Assembly: GCA_965140555.1 (NCBI GenBank)
Contig: OZ223259.1
Location: forward strand, 876,058 to 908,057
Reading direction: 5' to 3'
Source: Vallitaleaceae bacterium
GTDB lineage: Bacteria; Bacillota; Clostridia; Lachnospirales; Vallitaleaceae
Length of the DNA stretch: 32,000 nt
The position numbers were made by a program, and so were the translations under genes. The notes below the pieces were generated by a model. It did no database searches. It had not been told where the DNA came from and was given only the letters and a program-made list of their open reading frames with translations. Below are positions 7,044-28,234 of this stretch, in pieces. Position 1 is the stretch's first letter, and each line of letters opens with the position of its first letter.

Positions 7044-7193
7044 CTATTTTTCGTTTTCATCAATCCAATCTTTAGCATCTTCTATCGCTTCTGCATGAGG
7101 TATATGTACATTAGTTTCCTCTTCAAAACTCTCTGCATCAAGAACCGCTTCAGTTTGGTTTGGATTATATTCTCTTTGTTTTTTATCTTCCAT
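7044..7193 (-). CDS. Small acidic hypothetical protein, 49 aa (below the ORF-track size cut-off)
   Basis: My translation: MEDKKQREYNPNQTEAVLDAESFEEETNVHIPHAEAIEDAKDWIDENEK. AGGAGA (7201-7206) lies 7 nt upstream of the ATG. A consensus promoter lies upstream and a terminator downstream. The C-terminal AKDWIDENEK resembles small DUF3787-like clostridial proteins, but that is from memory and unverified. Confidence 0.6.
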   Translation of the reverse strand: MEDKKQREYNPNQTEAVLDAESFEEETNVHIPHAEAIEDAKDWIDENEK

Positions 7194-7252
7194 GTGACAC
7201 TCTCCTTTACTGTGCATTTCTATTCGTCATTGACGTTTTTGATTCTACACCT

Positions 7253-7281
7253 ATTATCGCTCTTTAAAAAGGAATTGTCAA
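7253..7281 (-). promoter_or_regulatory. Sigma-A-type promoter (TTGACA-N17-GATAAT) for the 49-aa ORF
   Basis: On the minus strand, TTGACA (7281-7276), a 17-nt spacer, then GATAAT (7258-7253). It lies about 45 nt upstream of the SD. Confidence 0.55.
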
Positions 7282-7319
7282 TAGTATATAATAATTATTA
7301 TCCGTTACTATGTTCTACT

Positions 7320-8414
7320 TTATGAAAGATACCCTTCTGCTTTAAGCAATTCTGCAATTAACACAGCACCTCCTGCGGCACCACGCAATGTATTATGAGA
7401 CAGACAAACAAATTTGTAATCAAATTGTCGGTCCTCCCGAAGACGTCCGACTGAAATACCCATTCCACGCTCATAATCCCGATCAAGTCCGGTTTGAGGA
7501 CGATTGTCTTCTTCCATGTATCGAATAAACTGTTCCGGTGCTAAAGGTAGTTTTAACGCTTGAGGTTGACCGCTATAAGTATTCCAAGCTTGAATCATCT
7601 CCTCTTTCGTCGGTTTCTTTTCAAAATTTACATAAACAGCTGCCATGTGACCATCCAATACCGGAACTCGAATACATTGAGCTGAAACAAGCGGCTCTGT
7701 TGCATGAACAATGGCATCACCGTCAATATGACCCCATATCTTCATCGGCTCCAATTCACTTTTCTCTTCTTCGCCACCAATATAAGGAATAACATTATCA
7801 ATCATCTCCGGCCATGTCTCAAATGTTTTTCCTGCCCCACTAATTGCTTGATAGGTGCAAACAATAATATCTTTAGGACCGTAAGCCTTCAATGCTTCTA
7901 TTGCCGGGACATAACTTTGAATGGAACAATTCGGCTTTACTGCTATAAATCCTTTTGTTGTATTCAACCGCTTCTTTTGAAACGGAATGATATCTAGATG
8001 TTCGTTATTCACTTCCGGTATTACCATAGGTACATCCGGTGTCATACGATGGGCTGAATTATTCGAAATAACCGGGACTTCTGCTTTTGCATAGGATACT
8101 TCAAGGGCACGAATGTCGTCTTTAGGCATATCTACGGCACAAAAAACAAAATCAACTTCCTTGGCAATGGCGTCCACATCCATAGCATTATAGATTATCA
8201 TTGGTTTAATCCACTCAGGAATAACCTCTTTTTGAGCCCAACGATTTCCTACTGCCTCTTCATAGGTCTTTCCTGCTGACCTGGGACTTGCTGCAAGTAA
8301 TGAAATTTCAAACCATTCATGTTGATGTAGTAGCGTAATAAACCGTTGACCCACCATTCCTGTTGCGCCAATAATTCCGACTTTCAATTTTTGATTCATG
8401 ATTATCTCACTCAT
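7320..8414 (-). CDS. asd: Aspartate-semialdehyde dehydrogenase
   Basis: KVGIIGATGMVGQRF NAD(P)-binding motif, active-site KPNCSIQSY, and C-terminal LSHNTLRGAAGGAVLIAELL. The true start may be the second ATG at 8399 (MNQKLKVGIIG...); neither ATG has a strong SD. Confidence 0.9.
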   Translation of the reverse strand: MSEIIMNQKLKVGIIGATGMVGQRFITLLHQHEWFEISLLAASPRSAGKTYEEAVGNRWAQKEVIPEWIKPMIIYNAMDVDAIAKEVDFVFCAVDMPKDDIRALEVSYAKAEVPVISNNSAHRMTPDVPMVIPEVNNEHLDIIPFQKKRLNTTKGFIAVKPNCSIQSYVPAIEALKAYGPKDIIVCTYQAISGAGKTFETWPEMIDNVIPYIGGEEEKSELEPMKIWGHIDGDAIVHATEPLVSAQCIRVPVLDGHMAAVYVNFEKKPTKEEMIQAWNTYSGQPQALKLPLAPEQFIRYMEEDNRPQTGLDRDYERGMGISVGRLREDRQFDYKFVCLSHNTLRGAAGGAVLIAELLKAEGYLS

Positions 8415-16599: not shown

Positions 16600-17391
16600 T
16601 TATTGCTTAGGAGGCATAGGAATAAATTTATTCGTATGCCTTTTGTATTGTTTAAAATCTTTCCGGTCTTTATATTTCTCTTCTAACAACGGCACACCGG
16701 ATACAAAATAGAGCAATAACGTCATAATAAGTGGTGATACATATAACGCTAAACTACTTACCGAATCAACCGCCATCGTGGTAATTCCCCACCATAAAAG
16801 CGCCTCTCCGAAATAATTCGGATGTCTTGTATACGCCCATAACCCTTCCGTCATCAATTGACCTTTATTGGATTTTCTGTTTTTAAATTTTCTTAATTGC
16901 CAGTCGCCGATAACCTCAAATCCAAAACCTACCAAAAAAATCACAATTCCGGCAATTAATAATCCGGACATACTATTGTTTGGTTTGGATATTCGATAAA
17001 TTATAGGCTGCGCCACAACCAGCATAAAAAACATTTGAAGCATAAAGACTCTTAAATACGCCATTATATACGGATGATCCCCAAATTTTTTACGCATATC
17101 AACATATCGAAAATCTTCACCTTTACCTATATTCCGAGATCCAATATGCAGTGCCAATCGACTTCCCCATAAAATCACACATACAGGTAGTACATAATCA
17201 AGTCCTTCCGGGTTTGCTCCAGGTTCAATTCTCTGAATAACAGAAAGACCTATTGCTAAAATTGCAAATCCTAATCCCCATCCTATATCCACAATTGAAT
17301 TATTATGTATTATTGTTGCAATAATAAAAAGAACTGTAAAATACACCCATAGAATACCTAACGACAAAACAATCAACATTCCATAACTCAT
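16600..17391 (-). CDS. DUF1295 / steroid 5-alpha-reductase-like polytopic membrane protein
   Basis: Multiple TM helices and the C-terminal [20 protein letters not shown] motif typical of the DUF1295/ICMT-like superfamily. Only 19 nt separate it from the upstream DAK2/DegV gene. Confidence 0.75.
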
Positions 17392-17410: not shown

Positions 17411-19255
17411 TTAATGTCTCCGTTCCTTTATTTTTTCTATAAATGACAGAGGTAATGTCTGTTCAACTGCAAATGCTACAGCCACAGCTCCTTCTCCGGC
17501 ACTCATGGCAATAATCGTTGATGAAGCACATATATATGTAGGTTCAAATCCTAAGTGCTTTTCTAGAATTCTACCTATATTTTGGGCTTCTTCTTTTTTA
17601 TCAACATAGACGATACTATACGCAGTAATCGTACATTTCTCATGATATTTGAGAATTTCTTTAATCAAGGCTTTTCGGCTACCGTTCTTGGACCAGGCCA
17701 GTCGTCCTAATGCCCCTTCTCCGTCTTTATTCAACGAGATTAGCGGTCTGAACTTAATCTTCTCTAATATATTACCCATCTTTACGGTAAGACGCCCTGA
17801 ACGAACCATAGGTTGTAAATCTGCGATTCGAACAAGTATTCTTACATTGCCTCGGGCTACATTAAGGAAATCAACAACTTCCTGTACAGACTTCCCTTTA
17901 TTTAATTCACCGGCTGCCATATATGCTAATAGACCTTGGGCTGCAGAGTTTTGCTTAGAATCGATTACATGGACTCTTTTACGTCCTTCATTCATCGGCT
18001 TTGCAACCTTCATAAAATTATTATAGGTTCCGCTTAATTTTCCTGATACATTAATGACTATAAGAGAGTCATAATAGCTTAATAAATATCTTAAACGATT
18101 ATCTATGGTTGCCACATCCGGCTGTGATGACGCAACCGTCTCTCCTTGATTTACTGCTCTTATTACATCTTGATTATGAATGGTCAACTTGTCAAAATAC
18201 TCACTCTCATCAATACTAATCCGCAAGGGTATTGTATGTATTTGCAACTGCTCAAGCAATGTTGGCGAGAGATCTGCAATAGAATCAACCACAATCCCAA
18301 CTTGATGTTGACGGTGGTAAGCAACCTCCACCTGCTCTTTCATATCATCAATCTTTTGATATCGAATGGATCCTTGCTTTTCTAAGAGTTGTACAACTTC
18401 TCGCGGTTGATTCGTATGAATATGAACACGTGTGACCAGTTTATTCCCTGCAACCACAATAGCATCTCCATAAGGTTTTAAGATATCCTTAATCCTTACC
18501 TCCGGATTATTAACTTTGTATAACACTTCTGTACAATAGCGATATGCAGGTACTTCATCTCCTACATGATTGTGCTCATGTACGCTTCTAATCTCATCTT
18601 CATCAATCTCTTCATCGGCCATTTCTTCTAACTGAAGATGCGTCTGTCGACTTTTCAAAAATTCCAGCATACCTTCAATAAATAAGACAAAGCCTTTGGC
18701 TCCTGAGTCAACAACTCCCGCTCGCTTTAGAATATCTAATTGTTGCTTTGTATGATCTAATGCAATGGTAGCTTCTTTGTAACCATATTCAATGACATCA
18801 ATAAAACTTTTACCTTTTGCCCGCTCCAACTTCAATGACTCTGTAAAAATGCGAATAACTGTTAATATAGTGCCTTCTACCGGTTCTCCCAATGCTTCAT
18901 AGGCAAAATCCAACGCCTGCTGATTAGCCGAAACAAAATCATCAATACTTACGTCTTCTTGACTATTGATTCCCTCACTGATACCTACAAAATATTGTGC
19001 AAAAATAACCCCCGAATTACCTCTAGCACCACTTAATGCAGCCTCAGCAAGTATTCCAAAGGCTTCCTTAAAATTATAATTGTCGTTTGCTCTATATAAA
19101 ACAGCTTTCATTGTAGAGAATAAATTGGTTCCGGTATCTCCATCAGGTACCGGAAACACATTAATCTGATTTAAATACTCTTTCTGTCCCATGACATTTT
19201 TTGCTCCTGAAAGGTAAGCATAATAAAGTCGTTTTCCCTCGATAGTTTCTGTCAT
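17411..19255 (-). CDS. DAK2-domain (FakA-like kinase) protein fused to a full-length DegV-like domain
   Basis: Dak2 motif [14 protein letters not shown] and ARGNSGVI; a central His/Cys cluster (HEHNH...YRYCTEV...RVHIHTN); C-terminal DegV-like [16 protein letters not shown]...YSIVYVD...GEGAVAVAF. The track starts at 19273. I prefer ATG 19255 (MTETIEGK), which has AAGGAGG (19262-19268) 6 nt upstream. Confidence 0.85.
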
Positions 19256-19474
19256 TCTAGTCCTCCTTAACATGTTCTCTCATATATATATAATCCGGCG
19301 TTGTATTATTAATTAATAATAATTATTACTCATCAATTATACCTTATTCTTTAATTGGTATCAATCACGAAATAAAGCTAGAAAAATTATGTAAACTTTG
19401 CTAAAATAGAATAAGTTTAACGCATCACTGCGACATTGCTTTCTCAGATAAAAATAATGAAAGAAGGTATTACT

Positions 19475-20533
19475 ATGAACACTCCGGTTATAGAAACGAA
19501 TTTTGCTTTTGAATTCATTTACAACCTAATGGGGATTGCTTATTACGAAACTAAAAACCCATCCACCGAAGATTTATCCACACAACGTTTTGCCCATTTT
19601 GTGACGGGTTACATTCACGAAATCTATAATGATATTCCACATATGGTCCGTAATGACATACACTTGTTCTTAAATGATTTCAGTAGCTTCTATGTTTCTT
19701 TATTACATATAGTTATTAATGAAACGATTCAAACACCTTTAGAACTTATAGAACGTCTTCGCAATATGGATATACATGAATTTTTAAACCTCTATCTAGA
19801 AGGAAATGAAATTCCACTCCAAACAGATTCCCCTAAAGACGCGTTGGATTCAGCTTTGGATGAGCTCACTAAATCCCGTCATGACTTAGCTAAGGATAAG
19901 GAACTCTTCTATGAATTTCTTGAGTTTGGTAGCGTCATCATGAAACGACTTGACGAATCTTTTTCCTACTATTACCGCCATTTTTTCCAACCACAAGAAG
20001 CCGAATTGGATCGCCAACTTAAACGCCTTCAAAAACATCATCAAATGATCTATGATGATAATCCTGAAGGATTCATTAACTCGATTCTTTTTCAAAGCAA
20101 GGAGTCTCTCAATGATTCGCAAACAGAAATCCATATCTACCTAGGCTATTATTATGGTGATCGAATTTCTGTCGCCTACGGAAGCAAGCATGAAGTATAT
20201 TTTTTCTATGGCGCAAGCGCCGAGAAAAAACTCTATTCCGAAAACCACCGTATCCAATATGATGAGTTAATCAAATCCTTAGCCGATGATACACGACGTA
20301 ATCTCATACGGTTTTTAATGAATTCCCCTCATTATAATAAGGAAATAGCTGATCATCTAGGCATCACTACTGCCACAATCAGCTATCATATAAGTCGTCT
20401 CGTTGATATAGGTATTATCCACTTGAAATATCAAGAAGGTAAACGTATATACTATCAGGTAGATATGGATCGATTCAATCAATTATTTGATGGTCTACGT
20501 CGTTATTTGATTTCGTCTGTAACCGACTACTGA
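19475..20533 (+). CDS. ArsR-family winged-helix regulator with a large unrecognised N-terminal domain (about 270 aa)
   Basis: The C-terminal LADDTRRNLIRFLMNSPHYNKEIADHLGITTATISYHISRLVDIGIIHL is an ArsR/SmtB HTH. The track starts at TTG 19436. ATG 19475 has AAGAAGG 8 nt upstream. The N-terminal domain may be DUF5937-like, but that is from memory and unverified. Confidence 0.7.
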   Translation: MNTPVIETNFAFEFIYNLMGIAYYETKNPSTEDLSTQRFAHFVTGYIHEIYNDIPHMVRNDIHLFLNDFSSFYVSLLHIVINETIQTPLELIERLRNMDIHEFLNLYLEGNEIPLQTDSPKDALDSALDELTKSRHDLAKDKELFYEFLEFGSVIMKRLDESFSYYYRHFFQPQEAELDRQLKRLQKHHQMIYDDNPEGFINSILFQSKESLNDSQTEIHIYLGYYYGDRISVAYGSKHEVYFFYGASAEKKLYSENHRIQYDELIKSLADDTRRNLIRFLMNSPHYNKEIADHLGITTATISYHISRLVDIGIIHLKYQEGKRIYYQVDMDRFNQLFDGLRRYLISSVTDY

Positions 20534-22098
20534 TTCAACAAACGCTCAAAACTCATACCATATTGATCAGCAATCCTTTTGGCGTAACTACGACCTAGCG
20601 GTTTACCCATTTCAATTTTATAGGGTGCATGCTCCATATCCCGACCTGCAATGAAACTTATCGGTTGCATGTTCGGGATTTCTTGTTGTATAGAATCTGA
20701 AAGTTCATGTAAATGGGTATTAAATATCACATAACTTTTCTGATCATATATTGCATGAAGGGTTTCTATTGCAATTTGCAAACTTTCATGATGGGATGTT
20801 CCTGAAAAAGATTCATTCATAAAATAAAAAGCCTGTCCATCTCCCGCGTCATAAAGCATTTTAAATCGACGACATTCTTCCCCCAATCGGCCATATTCCA
20901 CCGTATCTTTCTCTTCTCTAGGAAAGTGTAGATAGATACCGGACACATAAGGTAACATCGCTTTCTCTGCGGGCACAGGAAATCCCAATTGGGCAAACCA
21001 GATACATTGTGCCAAAGCTGTCGTTATCGTCGTTTTCCCTCCTCTATTTGCTCCTGTAAGAATCAGAATCCTCCTATTCTCATCAAAGGATATACTGTTA
21101 TTTACAACCAATTCCTTATCTTTGGTATACCCTAGTTGCAAATTGTACAGTCCTTCAATGGCTCCTCCCGTTTTCCACTCAGGAAACGTCCATCGATGCC
21201 CTCGTTTCTTTAACTGCTGAACATGGCGATAACCAACTATATAATACGGTAATTCCATTTTCATTAGACTTAAATATTCCAAAATCTTCTCAATAAACTG
21301 ATCACAAAAACGAATCAACTGTAGCATCGCCGGTTCAATAATCTTCTCCAATTGGTTCAGCGCATCCGGCGGTGCAATAGACTCTCTGGCAAAAATTTTA
21401 CGCGGAATGAGCATGACTTCTCTTACGCCCTTACCTATATAATACTCCATTTTTTTATTAAAGCGACTGTACTTGAATTCCTCTTCGCTTAATTCAAGCA
21501 AAATCGCTTCTATCGGTTGTAAGTACTCATCCAAATTCAAGCCGATTTTCATACTCTTTATTTCAGATTGTAATGTTTTGATATGATGTACATCTTCCAA
21601 AAAAGCTTCATATATTGATGAGGAAATAATCTCTTTATACATCTGATGCAATTGTCGTAGTCCATCGGAAGCCAGTGGCAGTTTTTCAAGTGCTGCTATT
21701 GCTTGTCCAACCATTTTATGAATGAGCAACACCTCTTCCATACGCTTCATCAAATTATAAACTGTTGCCTCTTTTTCAAAAGCGAATTTACTCATCGTTA
21801 AAAGATGGTATGCTTCCTCTCCTACGCCATAGAGTTCAAACAGTATATCCTCATGGTCTAAAAACTCTTTCATAATCCCTTGCCTGTAAACCGTATCTTT
21901 TTGGTGTACAGGATACTCTTGAATCAATGCACGTATGTTAATTTTATCCTCACTTTGCAAAATTTCTTCCAACACATCAATGGTCATATCATCCATATCA
22001 TCATCTGATAGTCGTCCGGTTGCAGACTCTCGACTGTGTTCCCAAAGTAAACTAATTCCGACAGAAGGCAGCTGATTTATAGGCATCTCTAAACGCAT
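20527..22098 (-). CDS. MutS-II-lineage ATPase paralogue B (MutS domain III/V only; no mismatch-binding domain, no Smr)
   Basis: Walker A ILTGANRGGKTT, FPVPAEKA, Walker-B region FYFMNESFSGTSHHESL, NTHLHEL, and a MutS2-like C-terminal YKIEMGKPLGRSYAKRIADQYGM. The ATG at 22098 overlaps the upstream paralogue by 10 nt; AAGGTGA lies 6 nt upstream. Confidence 0.8.
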   Translation of the reverse strand: MRLEMPINQLPSVGISLLWEHSRESATGRLSDDDMDDMTIDVLEEILQSEDKINIRALIQEYPVHQKDTVYRQGIMKEFLDHEDILFELYGVGEEAYHLLTMSKFAFEKEATVYNLMKRMEEVLLIHKMVGQAIAALEKLPLASDGLRQLHQMYKEIISSSIYEAFLEDVHHIKTLQSEIKSMKIGLNLDEYLQPIEAILLELSEEEFKYSRFNKKMEYYIGKGVREVMLIPRKIFARESIAPPDALNQLEKIIEPAMLQLIRFCDQFIEKILEYLSLMKMELPYYIVGYRHVQQLKKRGHRWTFPEWKTGGAIEGLYNLQLGYTKDKELVVNNSISFDENRRILILTGANRGGKTTITTALAQCIWFAQLGFPVPAEKAMLPYVSGIYLHFPREEKDTVEYGRLGEECRRFKMLYDAGDGQAFYFMNESFSGTSHHESLQIAIETLHAIYDQKSYVIFNTHLHELSDSIQQEIPNMQPISFIAGRDMEHAPYKIEMGKPLGRSYAKRIADQYGMSFERLLNQ

Positions 22099-23678
22099 TT
22101 CTCATCACCTTCTTTCTCTTTACCTGTCAATTGACTATACGTCACCCCATATCTTGATGCAATTTCCATAGCATAACTTCGCCCTAACGGTTTACGCACT
22201 TCCATTTCATAACTGATTTGATGATTATTCATCTTCGTCACCAAACTCTTAGGATATTGAGGTGTATGTATTAAATGTTCCTCCGTTTGTTCGTCTATCC
22301 AGTGCGTAACTTCATCATATAATTCATGTAGATGCGTATTATACACAAAAGGTATCCCCTTTGACAGCAACGCTTTTACTGCCTCTGCCGCTATACTCAA
22401 ACTCTCTAAATGACTCGTTCCCGCAAAGGATTCATTCATCAAGACTAACGTTCTGGGATTTGTTTCTTTAAATAGTGCGACAAACATCTCACATTCTTTT
22501 CCAAATTTACCTTTATCCAGATTTTCTTTCTCAGACACGGGAAAATGGGATAGAATATTATCTGCCAATCCCATATGTGCTGACGCTGCGGGCACATAAA
22601 GACCAAGTTGTCCCAACAGTTGTATCTGCCCGATACATTGAGTGAACGTTGTTTTACCGCCTCGATTGGCTCCTGTTATAATATAGGCTTGATTGCTTTT
22701 ATCCATGTCAAAATTATTAGTAATAATCGTCTCTTCCTGATCTCTCAATGCAAGATTGATATTATATCCCTTTATAAAATGTAAATTGTAGTCTCCTTCA
22801 TGAAAGGTCGGCTTGCACATTGGCAACCCTTTGCTTTCCATCTGAGTAATAAGCCTGTGACCAGATTCATAAAATGTCACTTCATCATGTAGCTGAATAA
22901 ACGGTGTAATATCCATGCGGGTATATGTTTTGACAAAATTCTCCATCTTAGGTTTATGTTCTCTTAATGCATACTCAATCTCTTCCAATACTTTATAGTT
23001 TAAACGTCCGATACGAAAAACAGGCACATAACTGGCTATCCGTTGTCCTAAGAACTCCGGATTTAAGGACAAGGTGTCTGATACATGCCTGAATGCTTTT
23101 GGATAACGGTGATGATGCGTTTCAACACTCGTCACCTGAGCAAACTTCGGACGAAGTCCTGATGTCATATTCACACTCAACACGGCACTTTTAATTTGAG
23201 AAAAAATATATTTGATTTCGCGTAAATCTTTTTTCATTGTTTTAAATGTATCCGTTTCCAGATTTCTTTCCACATCTTCTTTCAGACACAAAAGACCTTG
23301 AGACGTCAGCGGATAAAACCTTAGAATTTGGTTTAGCTCCTCTAACGCCTCAATAGATTTTTCCATCAATATCACCAAATCAATAATACGATACAAATTG
23401 GATTGCTCATATAACTTTGCATTATATAATGGTTTCAAATCATAAAATCGTTCCAATGCTTCCGATAACTCCTGCATCAGACCTTTATTTTGATAGAAAT
23501 CTTCCAATATTACCTGGCGATAGTGAATGGTCTCTTTGTCCATGCATAATGAAAAAAGAATCTCATCATTTGCAAGGAGTCTATCATAGACTCCTTGCAA
23601 ATTGAGATTCTCAATAATCTGTCGATCTAACGTATGTCGATTACTCTCCGGCAACCATATGATACTATTAAACTCCAT
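22089..23678 (-). CDS. MutS-II-lineage ATPase paralogue A (MutS domain III/V only; no mismatch-binding domain, no Smr)
   Basis: Walker A IITGANRGGKTT (nt 22647-22673), LYVPAASA, Walker-B region LVLMNESFAGTSHLESL, NTHLHEL, and C-terminal YEMEVRKPLGRSYAMEIASRYGV. The SD GGGAGA lies immediately after the adenosyltransferase stop. Confidence 0.8.
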   Translation of the reverse strand: MEFNSIIWLPESNRHTLDRQIIENLNLQGVYDRLLANDEILFSLCMDKETIHYRQVILEDFYQNKGLMQELSEALERFYDLKPLYNAKLYEQSNLYRIIDLVILMEKSIEALEELNQILRFYPLTSQGLLCLKEDVERNLETDTFKTMKKDLREIKYIFSQIKSAVLSVNMTSGLRPKFAQVTSVETHHHRYPKAFRHVSDTLSLNPEFLGQRIASYVPVFRIGRLNYKVLEEIEYALREHKPKMENFVKTYTRMDITPFIQLHDEVTFYESGHRLITQMESKGLPMCKPTFHEGDYNLHFIKGYNINLALRDQEETIITNNFDMDKSNQAYIITGANRGGKTTFTQCIGQIQLLGQLGLYVPAASAHMGLADNILSHFPVSEKENLDKGKFGKECEMFVALFKETNPRTLVLMNESFAGTSHLESLSIAAEAVKALLSKGIPFVYNTHLHELYDEVTHWIDEQTEEHLIHTPQYPKSLVTKMNNHQISYEMEVRKPLGRSYAMEIASRYGVTYSQLTGKEKEGDEKCV

Positions 23679-23687
23679 TGTCTCTCC

Positions 23688-24281
23688 CTACTGACGCAAT
23701 GTCATCTCTTCCTCTTCAATCTTGAACACATAGTTCAAATAACGCGCAGTCTGGAACAAATAATCGGCTAATCGATTAATGTATTGATAATCCACAGGTA
23801 CTTGCTGAATGACCTTTTGTTCCAATAACTCCTCAACATGCCTTACAAATACACGTTCACATCGCCGTGTAACACTCCTTACAACGTGGGTATATGTTGC
23901 AGTTACATGTCCGCTCATATAAATAAAATGATGTAGAACACCTGTTTTTTGCGTCATTGTATCAATACGCTGTTCCAAATAATCAATTTCTTCTTTGGAT
24001 ACAAGCTCCTGTCCGAATCCTGTTGTGACATCACTCCCTATGCGAAACATTGCATATTGTATGTTCGCAAGATCTTTGCAAAGCACATCAAACAAATCCC
24101 GGTCCACATTATCAGCCAAATTACTGACTTCGTTATTGATTAGGCTTCTTAAATGCCCGACTCCACTGTTGATTTCATCAATACTGCCTTGAAGTTCAAT
24201 CAGCAGACTTCCTTTCGATACTTTATCTCCATAAAAATTGGAAGTTTGACCATAATCACCTTGTCTTGTATAAATCGGCAT
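23688..24281 (-). CDS. PduO-type ATP:cob(I)alamin adenosyltransferase (MMAB family)
   Basis: N-terminal MPIYTRQGDYGQTS...KVSKGS, then GSIDEINSGVGHLRSL, VVRSVTRRCERVFV and INRLADYLFQTARYLN match the PduO N-terminal-domain pattern. GGAGG lies 5 nt upstream, directly after the AKR stop. Confidence 0.88.
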   Translation of the reverse strand: MPIYTRQGDYGQTSNFYGDKVSKGSLLIELQGSIDEINSGVGHLRSLINNEVSNLADNVDRDLFDVLCKDLANIQYAMFRIGSDVTTGFGQELVSKEEIDYLEQRIDTMTQKTGVLHHFIYMSGHVTATYTHVVRSVTRRCERVFVRHVEELLEQKVIQQVPVDYQYINRLADYLFQTARYLNYVFKIEEEEMTLRQ

Positions 24282-24296: not shown

Positions 24297-25250
24297 CTAA
24301 TGTAGGCTATAACTCGCTTGTTCTATGCGCATCATATCCTCTTTCGTTAATTGTATATCTGAAACGCCTAGTGCACATCGAAGCTGTTGTGGATTTCTAA
24401 GTCCTACAATAGCACCCGTAACAGCCTCATGTTGTAATGTCCATGCAACTGCCACTTGCGGCACTTGGCATCCTTTTTCCTGTGCTATTTCCTGTAATGT
24501 ATCAACGACTTGCAAATGCACTGATAATTGAGGCTCATTAAACGCATCGGCTGATTTTCTCCAATCATCTTCCGGCAGACTAAGGATACGATCACGCGTC
24601 ATCTTCCCGGTTAGCAATCCACTCGCCATTGGTGAATAAACAATCGTCCCAATTTGATGTTCTTTACAATAAGGTAAAATATCGTTTTCAATATCCCGTG
24701 ACAGCATATTATAAGGCGGTTGTAGTGATGTTATCGGCGCTATATCCGCTATCCGTTCCATTTGACTCACCGTGAAATTGGATACACCAAGATAGCGAAC
24801 CTTACCTTCTCGAACCATTTCTGACATTTCTGCCCAGGCTTCTTCTATGTCTTCTTCCGGATGTGGCCAATGAATCTGTAACATATCAATAACATTGACG
24901 CGTAGACGTCGCAGACTACTCTCCACTTCCTTGCGAACACTCTTAGCTGTTAATTTGTGTTGAATTTCATTTTTGTCATTCCATGTAATTCCAAGTTTAG
25001 TAAAAATCAACGGTCGGTTATGCATATGTTTTAATGCTCTTCCGATAACCTCTTCACTGTGTCCGCATCCATAGATAGGTGCCGTATCAATCCAATTAAT
25101 GCCTTGATCCACTGCTCGAATAATGGTCTCAATCGATTCATTATCTTTTTGATTTCCCCATCCTAGTCGTCCGGGTCCACCTATAGCCCAAGTACCCAAT
25201 CCTACTTGTGAAATTACTAAGTCACTATTTCCTAATCGTTTTTGCTTCAT
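24297..25250 (-). CDS. Aldo/keto reductase
   Basis: KRLGNSDLVISQVGLGTWAIGG, IDTAPIYGCGHSEEVIGRAL, LQIHWP and YLGVSNF are typical AKR blocks. The track starts at 25304. I prefer ATG 25250 (MKQKRLG), which still overlaps the upstream regulator gene by 26 nt. Confidence 0.85.
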   Translation of the reverse strand: MKQKRLGNSDLVISQVGLGTWAIGGPGRLGWGNQKDNESIETIIRAVDQGINWIDTAPIYGCGHSEEVIGRALKHMHNRPLIFTKLGITWNDKNEIQHKLTAKSVRKEVESSLRRLRVNVIDMLQIHWPHPEEDIEEAWAEMSEMVREGKVRYLGVSNFTVSQMERIADIAPITSLQPPYNMLSRDIENDILPYCKEHQIGTIVYSPMASGLLTGKMTRDRILSLPEDDWRKSADAFNEPQLSVHLQVVDTLQEIAQEKGCQVPQVAVAWTLQHEAVTGAIVGLRNPQQLRCALGVSDIQLTKEDMMRIEQASYSLH

Positions 25251-26145
25251 AAGATACACCATCCTTTGAATATATACCCATAAGTTGTGCATATAGTCCA
25301 TCAAAGTTTGTAGCGGTTATATCTGCCTGGCTCTCCAAATGTACCCCCGATGAGAGCGCCTGCCCCCCAACCGCAATGAACATTTCCGGCTTATGCTGTT
25401 GGATGATTTGCATCAGATTATCAAGCGCATCAAGATGATAGGTCAATGTTGCTGAGATAGCAATGAGTGCAGGATTCATTTTATCGAGAAGATCAAGAAC
25501 CTCCTTCGTCGGTATACGATTACCGATAAAAAAGGGATCAAATCCTAGCAATGCAAAATAGTCTGCAATCATACGTATCCCAAAAGTGTGCGATTCACTT
25601 GATAAGGACATACAAATCACTGTTCTACCTTTTCCAATCGGATATAGCGGTTCTAATATCGTCGTGGAAATACGTGAAATCATTGTATAAAAAACACTCG
25701 ATATGAAGTGTTCTTTAGCAACAGAAATCTCTCCGTCTTCCCAAAGTTGTCCTGTTCTAACAAGCAACGGTACAAAGACTTCCTCGTAGATCTGGATAAT
25801 TCTTACGCGATTCATCTCAAGCGATGTCATCAGTGCAATGGCTTCTCGATCTTTTTCTGATAATAGTAGCTGCCACAACTCTTCTTGCAATTGGGCTAAA
25901 AAAAGACCGTCAAACCCTGCCTCTGACTCCGACTCATGTGAGCGTCCTAAAAGATAGTCGATGGATGTATAAAATTGGTCCGCAATGGATGCCAATATAT
26001 CTTGATTAGGAAAACGGGTCTTCTTCTCATAATTAGCAATAGTTGTCTGTCCAAGACCAAGTCGTTTGCCTAATGTCTGCTGACTCATATGATGTTTTTT
26101 CCTTAAATCCTTTAATATATCACCAAATTCATTCACTGTAGCCAC
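25225..26145 (-). CDS. XRE-family HTH regulator fused to a CarH-like cobalamin (B12)-binding module
   Basis: GTG start with AGGAGA 5 nt upstream. Cro/C1 HTH at residues about 7-68. W135-x9-E145-H146 (nt 25708-25743). E184-S-H186-T-F-G189 (nt 25579-25596), then 41 residues to S231 and 26 residues from T233 to G260-G261. Confidence 0.85.
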   Translation of the reverse strand: MATVNEFGDILKDLRKKHHMSQQTLGKRLGLGQTTIANYEKKTRFPNQDILASIADQFYTSIDYLLGRSHESESEAGFDGLFLAQLQEELWQLLLSEKDREAIALMTSLEMNRVRIIQIYEEVFVPLLVRTGQLWEDGEISVAKEHFISSVFYTMISRISTTILEPLYPIGKGRTVICMSLSSESHTFGIRMIADYFALLGFDPFFIGNRIPTKEVLDLLDKMNPALIAISATLTYHLDALDNLMQIIQQHKPEMFIAVGGQALSSGVHLESQADITATNFDGLYAQLMGIYSKDGVSYEAKTIRK

Positions 26146-26156
26146 CTCGTTCTCCT

Positions 26157-26212
26157 ATTATATCACGCCTCGTGATGTACTAACAAGATACGCCGTGCCT
26201 CTTCTTGTTCAA
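26157..26212 (-). promoter_or_regulatory. Promoter region of the five-gene operon (two competing -35/-10 assignments)
   Basis: Best consensus is TTGTTA (26186-26181)-N18-TATAAT (26162-26157), but it abuts the SD and would leave a leader of 6 nt or less. The alternative is TTGAAC (26212-26207)-N16-TATCTT (26190-26185). A second inverted repeat AACAAGA (26182-26188)/TCTTGTT (26203-26209) overlaps the alternative boxes. Confidence 0.4.
26162..26176. promoter_or_regulatory. Operator-like palindrome ATCACG-N3-CGTGAT immediately upstream of the regulator SD
   Basis: Perfect 6-3-6 inverted repeat (26162-26167 and 26171-26176). It lies between candidate -35 and -10 boxes, or at about +2 to +17 of an alternative promoter. 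Confidence 0.45.
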
Positions 26213-26503
26213 TCTAATATATACCGCCATATTCACCAAGTTCTTTATGCAAAATAAAGCCTCTATAACATAGTACGAGACTTTGCACCTTTTCGGATTC
26301 CTTTTTCAGTTGTTCTACAGCTAAACATTATATAAAAGAATAAATGGTTGACTCTTTTCATACCTCGTCTCCTTTATATCCCTATTAAACTTGAACTCTC
26401 TCAAATATGGTGAAATTGCTTAACATTTCTGTTAATTTCATGTAATCTTTTGTGATACATCTATCATATCATAGGTTCACCGATTAATCAAAGAAAAGAA
26501 CGG

Positions 26504-26532
26504 TTGCACCAAATGAATTTGTGTGATAAACT
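26504..26532 (+). promoter_or_regulatory. Sigma-A-type promoter (TTGCAC-N17-TGaTAAACT) for the ABC-F gene
   Basis: TTGCAC at 26504-26509, a 17-nt spacer ending in TGA, and TAAACT at 26527-26532. The leader to the GTG at 26618 is about 80 nt. Confidence 0.5.
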
Positions 26533-26617: not shown

Positions 26618-28234
26618 GTGTTAAGTGTAAATAATGTCAGTTTAAGATTCAGTGATAAACAACTTTTTAAAGATGTTAATCTGAAATTCACCCACGGTAA
26701 CTGTTACGGTATTATTGGTGCAAATGGTGCCGGAAAATCAACATTCCTTCGTATCTTATCCGAAGAAATCGAACCCAATACAGGTGATATTGCCATTACA
26801 CCCGGCGAACGATTAGCTGTATTGAAACAAGATCACTTCCAATTTGATGAAGAAACCGTTATGGACACTGTCATTATGGGTCATGACCGCCTTTATCAAA
26901 TTATTCATGAGAAGGAAGCATTATACGCCAAAGAAGACTTTACCGAAGAAGACGGTATTAAGTCGGCTGAACTCGAAGCAGAATTTGCGGAATTAAATGG
27001 ATGGGATGCAGAATATGACGCTGAGAAATTGCTCATAGGATTAGATATTCCCAAAGATATGCATACATTGAAAGTCGGTGATTTAAACGGTTCCGACAAA
27101 GTCAAAGTATTACTTGCTCAAGCCTTATTTGGTAATCCACACATTTTATTATTGGATGAGCCTACAAACCATCTTGACTTTAAGACCATTATGTGGCTTG
27201 AAGATTTTCTCATTGATTACCCCAACACTGTTATCGTTGTTTCCCATGACCGTCACTTTTTGAACAATGTCTGTACACATATTGTGGATATTGATTTCCA
27301 AAAAGCCAATATGTATGTCGGTAACTACGACTTCTGGTATGAGTCCAGTCAATTAATGGCCCGTATGGCATCCGATCAAAACAAAAAAGCAGAAGAAAAA
27401 ATTAATGAATTAAAGGCTTTTATTGCCCGCTTTAGCTCCAATGCATCGAAAGCCAGACAGGCAACTTCTCGAAAGAAAATGCTTGATAAAATTAAAATAG
27501 AAGATATAAAACCCTCATCACGACGTTATCCTTTCGTCAACTTTGCTTCTGAGCGAGAAGTCGGCAAAGAGATTCTACGTGTGGAAGGATTATCTAAGAC
27601 CATCGATGGTGTTAAAGTTCTTAACAACATTACGTTCACCTTAAATCATAACGATAAAGTCGTTGTATTAAGCCGTAATGAATTAGCACGTACGACATTA
27701 TTCAAAATTCTCATGGGCGAAATGGAACCGGATGAAGGTGAATATAATTGGGGTGTTACCACAACGGTTGCCTATTTGCCAAAAGATAACAGTGAATACT
27801 TTGAGGATTGCCATATGAACCTTGTGGATTGGCTCCGTCAATACTCCAAGGAAAAAGATGAATCGTTCATTCGTGGATTTTTAGGTAAAATGCTATTCAG
27901 CGGTGAAGAAGCCCTCAAAGACGCTTCCGTCTTATCCGGTGGAGAAAAGGTTCGGTGTATGCTATCAAAAATGATGCTCTCCGGCGCCAATGTTGTTATA
28001 CTAGATGAACCTACAAACCACCTTGACTTAGAATCCATACAAGCTGTCAATGACGGTCTTATTGCATTCAAAGGAAATATTCTCTTTTCCTCACATGACC
28101 ATCGTTTTATAGAGACTATTGCAAACCGTGTATTCGAAATTACACCAAATGGTCTTGTCGATCGTTTATCAACCTTTGATGAATATCTAGAGAATGAAGC
28201 GCTTCAAGAAGAAGTTAATAAAATGTACGAATAA
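26618..28234 (+). CDS. ABC-F family ATPase (YdiF/YbiT-like translation-associated type, no TM domain)
   Basis: Two ABC cassettes (GIIGANGAGKST...LLLDEPTNHLD; LSGGEKVRCML...VILDEPTNHLD) are joined by a charged linker (QNKKAEEKINELKAFIARFSSNASKARQATSRKK). GTG start with GGAGG 6 nt upstream. From memory, the N-terminus is very close to B. subtilis YdiF. Confidence 0.88.
   Translation: MLSVNNVSLRFSDKQLFKDVNLKFTHGNCYGIIGANGAGKSTFLRILSEEIEPNTGDIAITPGERLAVLKQDHFQFDEETVMDTVIMGHDRLYQIIHEKEALYAKEDFTEEDGIKSAELEAEFAELNGWDAEYDAEKLLIGLDIPKDMHTLKVGDLNGSDKVKVLLAQALFGNPHILLLDEPTNHLDFKTIMWLEDFLIDYPNTVIVVSHDRHFLNNVCTHIVDIDFQKANMYVGNYDFWYESSQLMARMASDQNKKAEEKINELKAFIARFSSNASKARQATSRKKMLDKIKIEDIKPSSRRYPFVNFASEREVGKEILRVEGLSKTIDGVKVLNNITFTLNHNDKVVVLSRNELARTTLFKILMGEMEPDEGEYNWGVTTTVAYLPKDNSEYFEDCHMNLVDWLRQYSKEKDESFIRGFLGKMLFSGEEALKDASVLSGGEKVRCMLSKMMLSGANVVILDEPTNHLDLESIQAVNDGLIAFKGNILFSSHDHRFIETIANRVFEITPNGLVDRLSTFDEYLENEALQEEVNKMYE

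Follow-up and report, generated by a model that had tools for sequence, protein, structure and literature searches.

A stretch of 32,000 nucleotides from a Vallitaleaceae bacterium (GenBank assembly GCA_965140555.1, contig OZ223259.1, positions 876,058 to 908,057), referred to here as the window, encodes a protein in which an XRE/Cro-C1 DNA-binding domain is joined to a cobalamin-binding domain (CBD). The question raised by this locus is whether such a protein senses light through adenosylcobalamin (AdoCbl) and which genes it would control. A sequence-only reading had described the protein as an XRE helix-turn-helix (HTH) followed by a helical region and a Rossmann-type B12-binding domain. Its domain architecture, cofactor motifs and structural class were computed, as were a conserved operator, the position of that operator and the gene neighbourhoods of the family. 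The regulator is probably an AdoCbl-dependent, light-released transcriptional autorepressor, with a CarH-like action exerted through a different DNA-binding domain.

The regulator and its cobalamin-binding domain

The regulator gene (25225..26145, minus strand) was defined by its open reading frame (ORF), three Pfam domains and full-length homologues. It encodes 306 amino acids from a GTG start at 26145 and the translation was checked. A second GTG at 26136 gives a product of 303 amino acids beginning MNEFGD. This may be the true start, as homologues begin MKFGD or MQFGD, two to three residues before the FGD motif. All three of the domains described earlier were found by hmmscan above the Pfam gathering thresholds. 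The XRE/Cro-C1 HTH (residues 11-65, 25951..26115, minus strand) matched HTH_3 (PF01381) with an E value of 1.8e-10 and a score of 41.1 bits against a cut-off of 23. The four-helix-bundle cap subdomain (residues 87-157, 25675..25887, minus strand) matched B12-binding_2 (PF02607, E 6e-10) and the Rossmann-type domain (residues 175-265, 25351..25623, minus strand) matched B12-binding (PF02310, E 8.8e-13). The N-terminus separately matched Xre-type repressors in the Protein Data Bank (PDB), namely the ICEBs1 ImmR-type Xre, P22 C2 and SinR. The recognition helix, QTTIANYE, spans residues 33-40. Q33 and T35-E40 were invariant and T34 nearly so in an alignment of 23 homologues, and a QTTIANYE-like helix was present in 124 of 158 full-length family members.

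Residue numbers, nucleotide coordinates and the spacings of 41 and 26 residues that had been given for the cofactor motifs were all correct on recomputation. The predicted 5'-deoxyadenosyl cap, W135-x9-E145-H146, is located at 25708..25743 (minus strand), with W135 at 25741-25743 and H146 at 25708-25710. The range quoted earlier for this segment holds for W135 to H146 but not for the flanking L and F residues, which fall outside it. The Rossmann motif reads E184xH186xxG189-x41-S231xT233-x26-G260G261, with E184 to G189 at 25579-25596. The canonical B12 motif is written D/ExHx2G/P-x41-SxT/V-x22-27-GG (PMC9304148), and the S-A-T that had been taken as a departure from the motif is therefore itself canonical. 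A GxxW element (G132-Q-L-W135) and a GxxxP element (G208-N-R-I-P212) are also present. The residue after the Trp is E136 and not His.

Photoreceptor CBDs ranked first when the single sequence was searched against the PDB, with CtMerR of Chloracidobacterium thermophilum (8JBS) at an E value of 7e-11 and Thermus thermophilus CarH (TtCarH) at about 4e-7. A family profile was built from the 23 homologues and searched against the same database. The matches included CtMerR (E 3.4e-25), photocobilins (about 5e-21), the methyltransferase corrinoid protein MttC (4e-18) and TtCarH (3.5e-10), while AerR was a weak match (4.8e-7). An AlphaFold model made on the family alignment had a mean pLDDT of 85.7 and placed the cap helices at residues 80-95, 99-107, 113-136 and 142-160. 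The 50 best Foldseek matches of this model in the PDB were all B12 photoreceptor domains, belonging to CtMerR, TtCarH or photocobilin chains, with a target-normalised TM-score of about 0.8 over the CBD. CtMerR (8jbs/8jbt) was the best match (E about 3e-11), followed by TtCarH and photocobilins. The suggestion that W135, E145, H146 and H186 occupy the positions of the CarH cofactor pocket was upheld by HMMER alignments, which placed W135 on TtCarH W131, E136 on H132, E145/H146 on E141/H142 and H186 on H177. G208...P212 aligned to the GxxxP element, and the key residues also matched their CtMerR equivalents. In the crystal structure of CtMerR the His is the lower ligand, and the Trp and the GxxxP Pro of the neighbouring monomer pack on the adenosyl group (PMC11796333).

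These residues are strongly conserved. G132, W135, E145, E184, H186, G208, P212, S231, G260 and G261 were invariant in the 23 homologues and H146 was also conserved. Wx9EH was kept in 151 of the 158 full-length members (96%), with GxxW in 150 of those 151, and the strict lower-ligand His motif was kept in 131 of the 158. The residue after the Trp was Glu in 99 of the 151, Gln in 18, Ala in 12 and His in two. Of the signature for light-responsive CBDs (Yu et al. 2024) the regulator has GxxW, EH and GxxxP and lacks GxxH. Corrinoid proteins of the MtbC/MttC/MtaC type had neither the Trp nor the Glu-His cap in the profile alignment, and the regulator scored below the cut-offs of the methyltransferase corrinoid models (TIGR02370, 28.8 against 215 bits; MtgC, 34 against 370; MtaC, 24.6 against 450).

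The regulator had been put forward as a possible new class of B12/light-responsive repressor. That part of the claim stands in so far as no characterised XRE-B12 photoreceptor was described in the literature searched. The nearest mention is of light-responsive CBDs fused to 'HTH' domains of unspecified type, found by database mining without experiments (SignatureFinder 2024, PMC11796333), and the supplement also gives no type for the 'HTH' clusters. The idea of a unique chimera did not survive the survey of databases, which placed the protein by sequence within a widespread family. A word-indexed search returned 24 proteins with the same three-domain architecture, for which 'XRE family transcriptional regulator' and 'cobalamin-dependent protein' are the only names given in their sources. 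When one genome per species was scanned, 111 genomes had a relative, with a best identity of 48%. The hosts were mostly Clostridia (including Clostridium, Proteiniclasticum, Alkaliphilus, Natronincola and Vallitaleaceae), Halanaerobiales and Spirochaetota. When 1.8 billion cluster representatives were searched exhaustively with a profile, 1,922 matched at E ≤1e-30, and about 140 of the best 150 were full length at 280-320 amino acids. Cultured species with an XRE-CBD gene include Proteiniclasticum ruminis, Clostridium tetanomorphum, Thermohalobacter berrensis and Halothermothrix orenii. Two tandem XRE-CBD paralogues were seen in one uncultured Spirochaetales genome (locus L021, 6984-8891).

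Predicted operator, gene neighbourhoods and comparison with known regulators

All perfect inverted repeats of 5 or 6 nt were surveyed in the 250 nt upstream of the regulator at 81 loci of the family. The top-ranked palindrome was ATCAC-N5-GTGAT, found at 15 loci compared to eight for the runner-up. In shuffled sequences the perfect site was expected at 0.01 loci; at up to one mismatch it was found at 25 loci against 0.55 in shuffled sequences. The density of perfect sites upstream of the regulator was 160 times that in the remaining 1.15 Mb of the loci. In the window this predicted operator is the perfect inverted repeat ATCACgaggcGTGAT at 26162..26176, the only match at zero or one mismatch in the 32 kb. 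It fills the spacer between the -35 and -10 boxes of the regulator's own promoter and overlaps the -10 box. This sigma-70-type promoter (26157..26186, minus strand) has a -35 box of TTGTTA (26186-26181), an 18-nt spacer and a TG-extended -10 box of TATAAT (26162-26157), and with 10 of 12 matches it was the best-scoring promoter-like site between 20300 and 26700. Alignment of the sites showed that each of them merges at its right arm with a -10-like box, the consensus being TATCACAAnAnGTGATATAAT, and a hexamer resembling TTGACA is often present a little further upstream. The operator/-10 fusion GTGATATAAT recurs in distant genomes, the layout being present in Petrocella, Vallitaleaceae, Proteiniclasticum, Thermohalobacter and a Peptostreptococcaceae metagenome-assembled genome (MAG). 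As judged from sequence, this overlap is the classic layout of a promoter-occluding autorepressor. The palindrome would be the expected target for a pair of XRE heads by analogy with other repressors of this type, and its conservation accords with the near-invariant recognition helix.

Matches to the operator with two or three mismatches were at chance level across the window. A second operator was considered before the Dak2/DegV-DUF1295 operon of the window and rejected, as only a lone GTGAT half-site was present near 19363-19367. Rfam at the gathering threshold found no B12 riboswitch or other known RNA in the whole window, including the 470-nt region upstream of the regulator, and the protein is therefore the only B12-linked regulatory element seen there. 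Three GTGATA half-sites in the same orientation (26452-26457, 26523-26528 and 26652-26657, plus strand) lie in the gap that separates the regulator from the divergent ABC-F gene or slightly within the latter. Four TATCAC/GTGATA hexamers occur in 515 nt compared to 0.32 expected (Poisson p about 3e-4). The presence of the half-sites may be coincidental, or a higher oligomer might use them as auxiliary sites. The 470-nt intergenic region also contains, upstream of the regulator promoter, a 32-codon ORF (MKRVNHLFFYIMFSCRTTEKGIRKGAKSRTML, 26263-26361, minus strand) with a strong AAGGAGA ribosome binding site.

The gene neighbourhoods were characterised by calling ORFs in the 81 loci, clustering them and annotating the recurrent clusters. 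A class II photolyase (TIGR00591, 516 bits) was present at 13 loci, a CrtI-family phytoene desaturase above the NCBIfam cut-off at seven, phytoene/squalene synthase (CrtB) and HMG-CoA synthase at five each, and type-2 IPP isomerase at two. Photolyase or crt genes lay within 8 kb of the regulator at 21 loci. DUF1295 (13 loci), DUF2177 (11) and a Dak2/DegV fusion (14) were also recurrent. The photolyase and carotenoid gene set is that controlled by CarH/LitR in Thermus, Myxococcus, Bacillus and Pseudomonas, and the family neighbourhoods point to a similar putative light regulon. No B12 synthesis or transport genes recurred among the neighbours and no methyltransferase genes were annotated there. 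A corrinoid methyltransferase context had first been guessed for Proteiniclasticum and was rejected, as these neighbours are a photolyase and an ABC/FtsX transporter. In Proteiniclasticum the regulator is divergent from an operon ending in photolyase, and the operator lies between the two. At locus L010 it precedes an operon containing both regulator and photolyase, and at L012 a second site precedes Dak2/DegV-DUF1295-DUF2177.

Further features of the loci were noted. At eight loci (L014, L025, L028, L033, L036, L038, L051 and L064), spirochaetal and some clostridial, crtI, crtB or mevalonate genes adjoin the regulator and no operator was found at up to one mismatch. These branches may use a different operator, judging from their upstream sequences. 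A stand-alone B12-binding protein of about 220 amino acids was found at L045, L048, L050, L054, L060, L062, L063 and L073 (about 7100-7800, minus strand). In Proteiniclasticum and relatives its gene is divergent from the regulator and heads the operon with the FtsX/ABC transporter and photolyase. ExHxxG and GxxxP are retained in this protein, which lacks the Trp of Wx9EH, and its pairing with the regulator recalls that of CarA and CarH in Myxococcus. A small DICT-domain protein is encoded just upstream of the regulator at L008, L016, L018 and L027 (Thermohalobacter, Halanaerobiaceae, Natroniella and a Clostridium MAG), and three of these four loci also encode an ECF-transporter S component. 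DICT domains are listed among the partners of light-responsive CBDs (PMC11796333). The window itself contains a Dak2/DegV fusion (17411-19273, minus strand) and a DUF1295 gene (16600-17391, minus strand) about 6 kb from the regulator. This pair, often with DUF2177, adjoins XRE-CBD regulators in at least 13 other genomes.

The closest functional comparison is with CarH/class I LitR of T. thermophilus, M. xanthus and B. megaterium. These proteins have the same two-part CBD, with Wx9EH, the Rossmann B12 motif and a one-to-one correspondence of key residues, and the same layout of an N-terminal DNA-binding domain in a total of about 300 amino acids. The likeness extends to the photolyase and carotenoid neighbours at family level and to the predicted autorepression by promoter occlusion. 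The CarH operator, however, reportedly consists of tandem 11-bp direct repeats bound by a tetramer, whereas the predicted operator of the regulator is a single 15-bp palindrome. TtCarH has His after the Trp where the regulator has Glu, and the hosts of the XRE-CBD family are mostly anaerobic Clostridia and Spirochaetota, a further difference from CarH. CarH/class I LitR has a MerR winged helix (PMC9304148), in contrast to the XRE/Cro-C1 domain of the regulator, which had no MerR Pfam match. Against the NCBIfam CarH equivalog (NF052513) the regulator scored 46.2 bits compared to a cut-off of 400, over the CBD part only. With no MerR domain, this low score, no His after the Trp and a palindromic operator, the regulator is not a member of CarH/class I LitR by sequence.

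Other known proteins share one part of the regulator each. CtMerR was the best CBD match in both sequence and fold and has GxxW, EH and GxxxP in common with it, but its DNA-binding domain is of the MerR type, CBD identity is about 20% and it has GxxH where the regulator has SxxH. Photocobilins and other modular CBD photoreceptors (SasPcob, 8J2W/8J2X; AbDPcob, 8J2Y; photoglobin-CBD fusions) use the same type of CBD as a plug-in sensor on varied outputs. Those outputs include a bilin-binding domain and GGDEF among others, none being characterised with an XRE output, and their oligomeric responses differ. XRE/Cro-C1 repressors such as P22 C2, SinR and ICEBs1 ImmR share the HTH_3 fold and a dimer-type palindromic operator overlapping the promoter. 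At the C-terminus they carry a plain dimerisation domain or one sensitive to protease, where the regulator has a cofactor-binding CBD. Both the sensor module and its modularity were already known. What appears to be new, on the sequence comparisons made here, is the output domain, together with the logic of the operator and the range of hosts.

Proposed mechanism and alternative explanations

In the proposed mechanism AdoCbl would bind in the dark in the base-off/His-on form at H186, with its 5'-deoxyadenosyl group capped by the helical-bundle residues W135, E145 and H146 together with P212 from a neighbouring subunit. Capping would keep the B12-binding domains together head to tail, as a dimer or a larger oligomer. 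This oligomer would present two XRE heads to ATCAC-N5-GTGAT and so exclude RNA polymerase from the promoter. Light would cleave the Co-C bond, the oligomer would fall apart, DNA affinity would be lost and the operon would be transcribed. The operon is predicted to contain five genes, including one for a PduO-type cob(I)alamin adenosyltransferase, and light-induced PduO would replace the photolysed AdoCbl chromophore. Each of these steps is inferred, from AdoCbl binding and oligomerisation to the light response and repression, and so is transcription of the five genes as one unit.

A number of observations weigh against light release. The TtCarH dimer is said to have a salt bridge between R176 and D201. 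As we read the alignment these positions are S185 and R210 in the regulator, and the TtCarH oligomer interface is therefore not simply transferable. The hosts are mainly from lineages generally regarded as anaerobic. The full photoresponse of CarH integrates redox chemistry with oxygen (PMC10442372), which makes the outcome of photolysis in vivo uncertain by analogy. The window operon has no classic photoprotection gene and contains reductase, adenosyltransferase and MutS-like genes instead. The adenosyltransferase had been cited earlier in favour of AdoCbl as the cofactor. The gene is real (PF01923, TIGR00636) and tightly packed downstream, but its linkage is peculiar to the window genome, with no counterpart at the other 80 loci. 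It therefore supports AdoCbl at this locus and not as a family feature.

Two of the motif elements also differ. The GxxH element of the 2024 signature reads S183-E-S-H186 in the regulator. Among 131 members the first position was G in 63, the commonest residue, and S in 19. In CtMerR the GxxH contact is made via the main-chain carbonyl, Gly carbonyls hydrogen-bonding the corrin ring (PMC11796333), and because of this main-chain contact Ser may be tolerated by analogy. The main doubt comes from the missing upper-ligand His, the position of TtCarH H132 being E136 in the regulator. H132 is the light-state upper ligand of TtCarH and its removal blocks monomerisation (PMC10442372). CtMerR has Arg at the position after the Trp, yet its tetramers still become monomers under green light (PMC11796333). 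By that analogy the absence of His after the Trp does not disqualify the regulator from light switching.

The chief alternative is that the regulator is a dark-acting sensor of B12 availability. AdoCbl would be a co-repressor, the cellular AdoCbl level would be the signal and the adenosyltransferase would be under feedback, forming a protein analogue of the B12 riboswitch feedback loop. The PduO gene in the operon behind the operator, the lack of an Rfam B12 riboswitch in the window and the mainly anaerobic hosts, from sediments, guts and similar habitats, are in keeping with such a sensor. The family profile also scored MttC (4e-18) nearly as high as the photoreceptor CBDs, and any CarH-type repressor inherently needs B12 to repress. 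However, the adenosyltransferase linkage is restricted to the window genome and B12 biosynthesis or transport genes are not recurrent neighbours. The genes that do recur (photolyase, carotenoid, DUF1295/DUF2177) are sensible for light and not for B12 homeostasis, and the Wx9EH cap, a mark of photoreceptor CBDs, is missing in the aligned corrinoid proteins. A purely B12-sensing role is thus possible but rather unlikely. The two readings are not mutually exclusive, as any CarH-type repressor reports both light and B12 level.

The CBD might instead serve constitutive oligomerisation in a B12-independent, CarA-like repressor, or carry OH- or methyl-cobalamin as in the AerR type, with a partner protein or some other ligand providing the signal. 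Loss of B12 dependence in a CarH-like fold has a precedent in CarA (PMC9304148), and the His after the Trp is absent from the regulator too. The stand-alone 220 amino acid CBD that adjoins the regulator at several loci could be such a partner, and AerR was a weak profile match (4.8e-7). CarA, however, has lost the Trp of Wx9EH, whereas the complete motif is retained, along with the lower-ligand His motif, in the regulator and in 96% of the family. HaAI-2E, which lacks the signature, bound OHCbl only, while the tested signature-bearing proteins bound AdoCbl and were light-responsive (PMC11796333). We consider this explanation improbable. A repressor of a mobile element or toxin-antitoxin system, with an incidental corrinoid domain and unrelated to its neighbours, would account for the sub-threshold NCBIfam matches of the HTH to RstR (56.9 bits compared to a cut-off of 80) and to HipB/MqsA-type antitoxins. 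These matches span the HTH only and are all below their cut-offs, there are no phage or toxin genes in the window, and the shared gene order with ABC-F, aconitase and the MutS-like pair is a chromosomal arrangement that related genomes retain. An origin of this kind is very improbable indeed.

If the light-released autorepressor is confirmed, transcriptional B12 photoreception would no longer be confined to MerR-type CarH/LitR proteins, as a second, large family of repressors would share it. Light would then be sensed by many strict anaerobes among the Clostridia, Halanaerobiales and Spirochaetota, which would respond by inducing photolyase and carotenoid genes, a side of their ecology that has been little studied. 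The family would also be a test of Co-C photolysis coupled to disassembly without bis-His ligation, and possibly without oxygen, because the His required for disassembly of TtCarH is missing from nearly all members. A 15-bp palindrome over the -10 box would be simpler to transplant than the multi-repeat CarH operator. It would offer a green-light or B12 switch for synthetic biology, including in Clostridia, for which few optogenetic parts are available.

The putative operon in the window

Downstream of the regulator and on the same strand are four further genes. The aldo-keto reductase gene (24297..25250, minus strand; PF00248, E 1.4e-82) has a likely ATG start at 25250, which overlaps the 3' end of the regulator by 26 nt, and a YdjG-like NCBIfam match to its product starts at residue 19. 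The reductase probably has a role in carbonyl detoxification. The PduO-type adenosyltransferase gene (23688..24281, minus strand; PF01923, E 7e-39; TIGR00636 PduO_Nterm, 135 bits against a cut-off of 108) is two genes downstream of the regulator and follows the reductase gene after 15 nt. MutS-related ATPase A (22089..23678, minus strand) begins 9 nt further on, and its gene overlaps by 10 nt that of ATPase B (20527..22098, minus strand), the last gene of the putative operon. ATPase A has Pfam MutS domains III and V and no mismatch-binding or Smr domain, and its paralogue B matched Pfam MutS_V. They are 529 and 523 amino acids long and about 28% identical, with domains III and V only. The five genes are likely to form one operon behind the operator in view of this tight packing, and no terminator was predicted between them.

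The gene order was compared to that of the closest loci (L001-L005), which are from Clostridiales UBA2432, Eubacteriales and Vallitaleaceae MAGs. These have aconitase, ABC-F, regulator, MutS-like A, MutS-like B and an ArsR-like gene, with MutS-like A directly after the regulator and the two ATPases conserved as a pair. The reductase and PduO genes are inserted between the regulator and the MutS-like pair in the window genome only.

The best full-length NCBIfam match of the MutS-like ATPases was KamC (E 1e-22), at 80.7 bits compared to a cut-off of 300. KamC is the reactivase ATPase of AdoCbl-dependent lysine 5,6-aminomutase. The five genes might conceivably combine a photoreceptor with recycling of its chromophore, in which the MutS-like ATPases would eject photolysed cobalamin, co-induced PduO would re-adenosylate it and the dark state would be reset. 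If true, a B12 photoreceptor would for the first time be seen to have its own dedicated repair system, which would make the switch reversible in vivo. Such a role is a long shot, because Vallitalea guaymasensis has the MutS-like pair beside a rubredoxin-type oxidoreductase with no regulator or B12 gene nearby, and the KamC score is far below the cut-off. More distant single MutS-like homologues were found in uninformative contexts.

About 15 residues at the C-terminus of the regulator (YSKDGVSYEAKTIRK, 25225-25270, minus strand) form a tail that was absent from all homologues except one that is 90% identical. Its overlap with the start of the inserted aldo-keto reductase gene suggests that the tail arose together with the reductase/pduO insertion.

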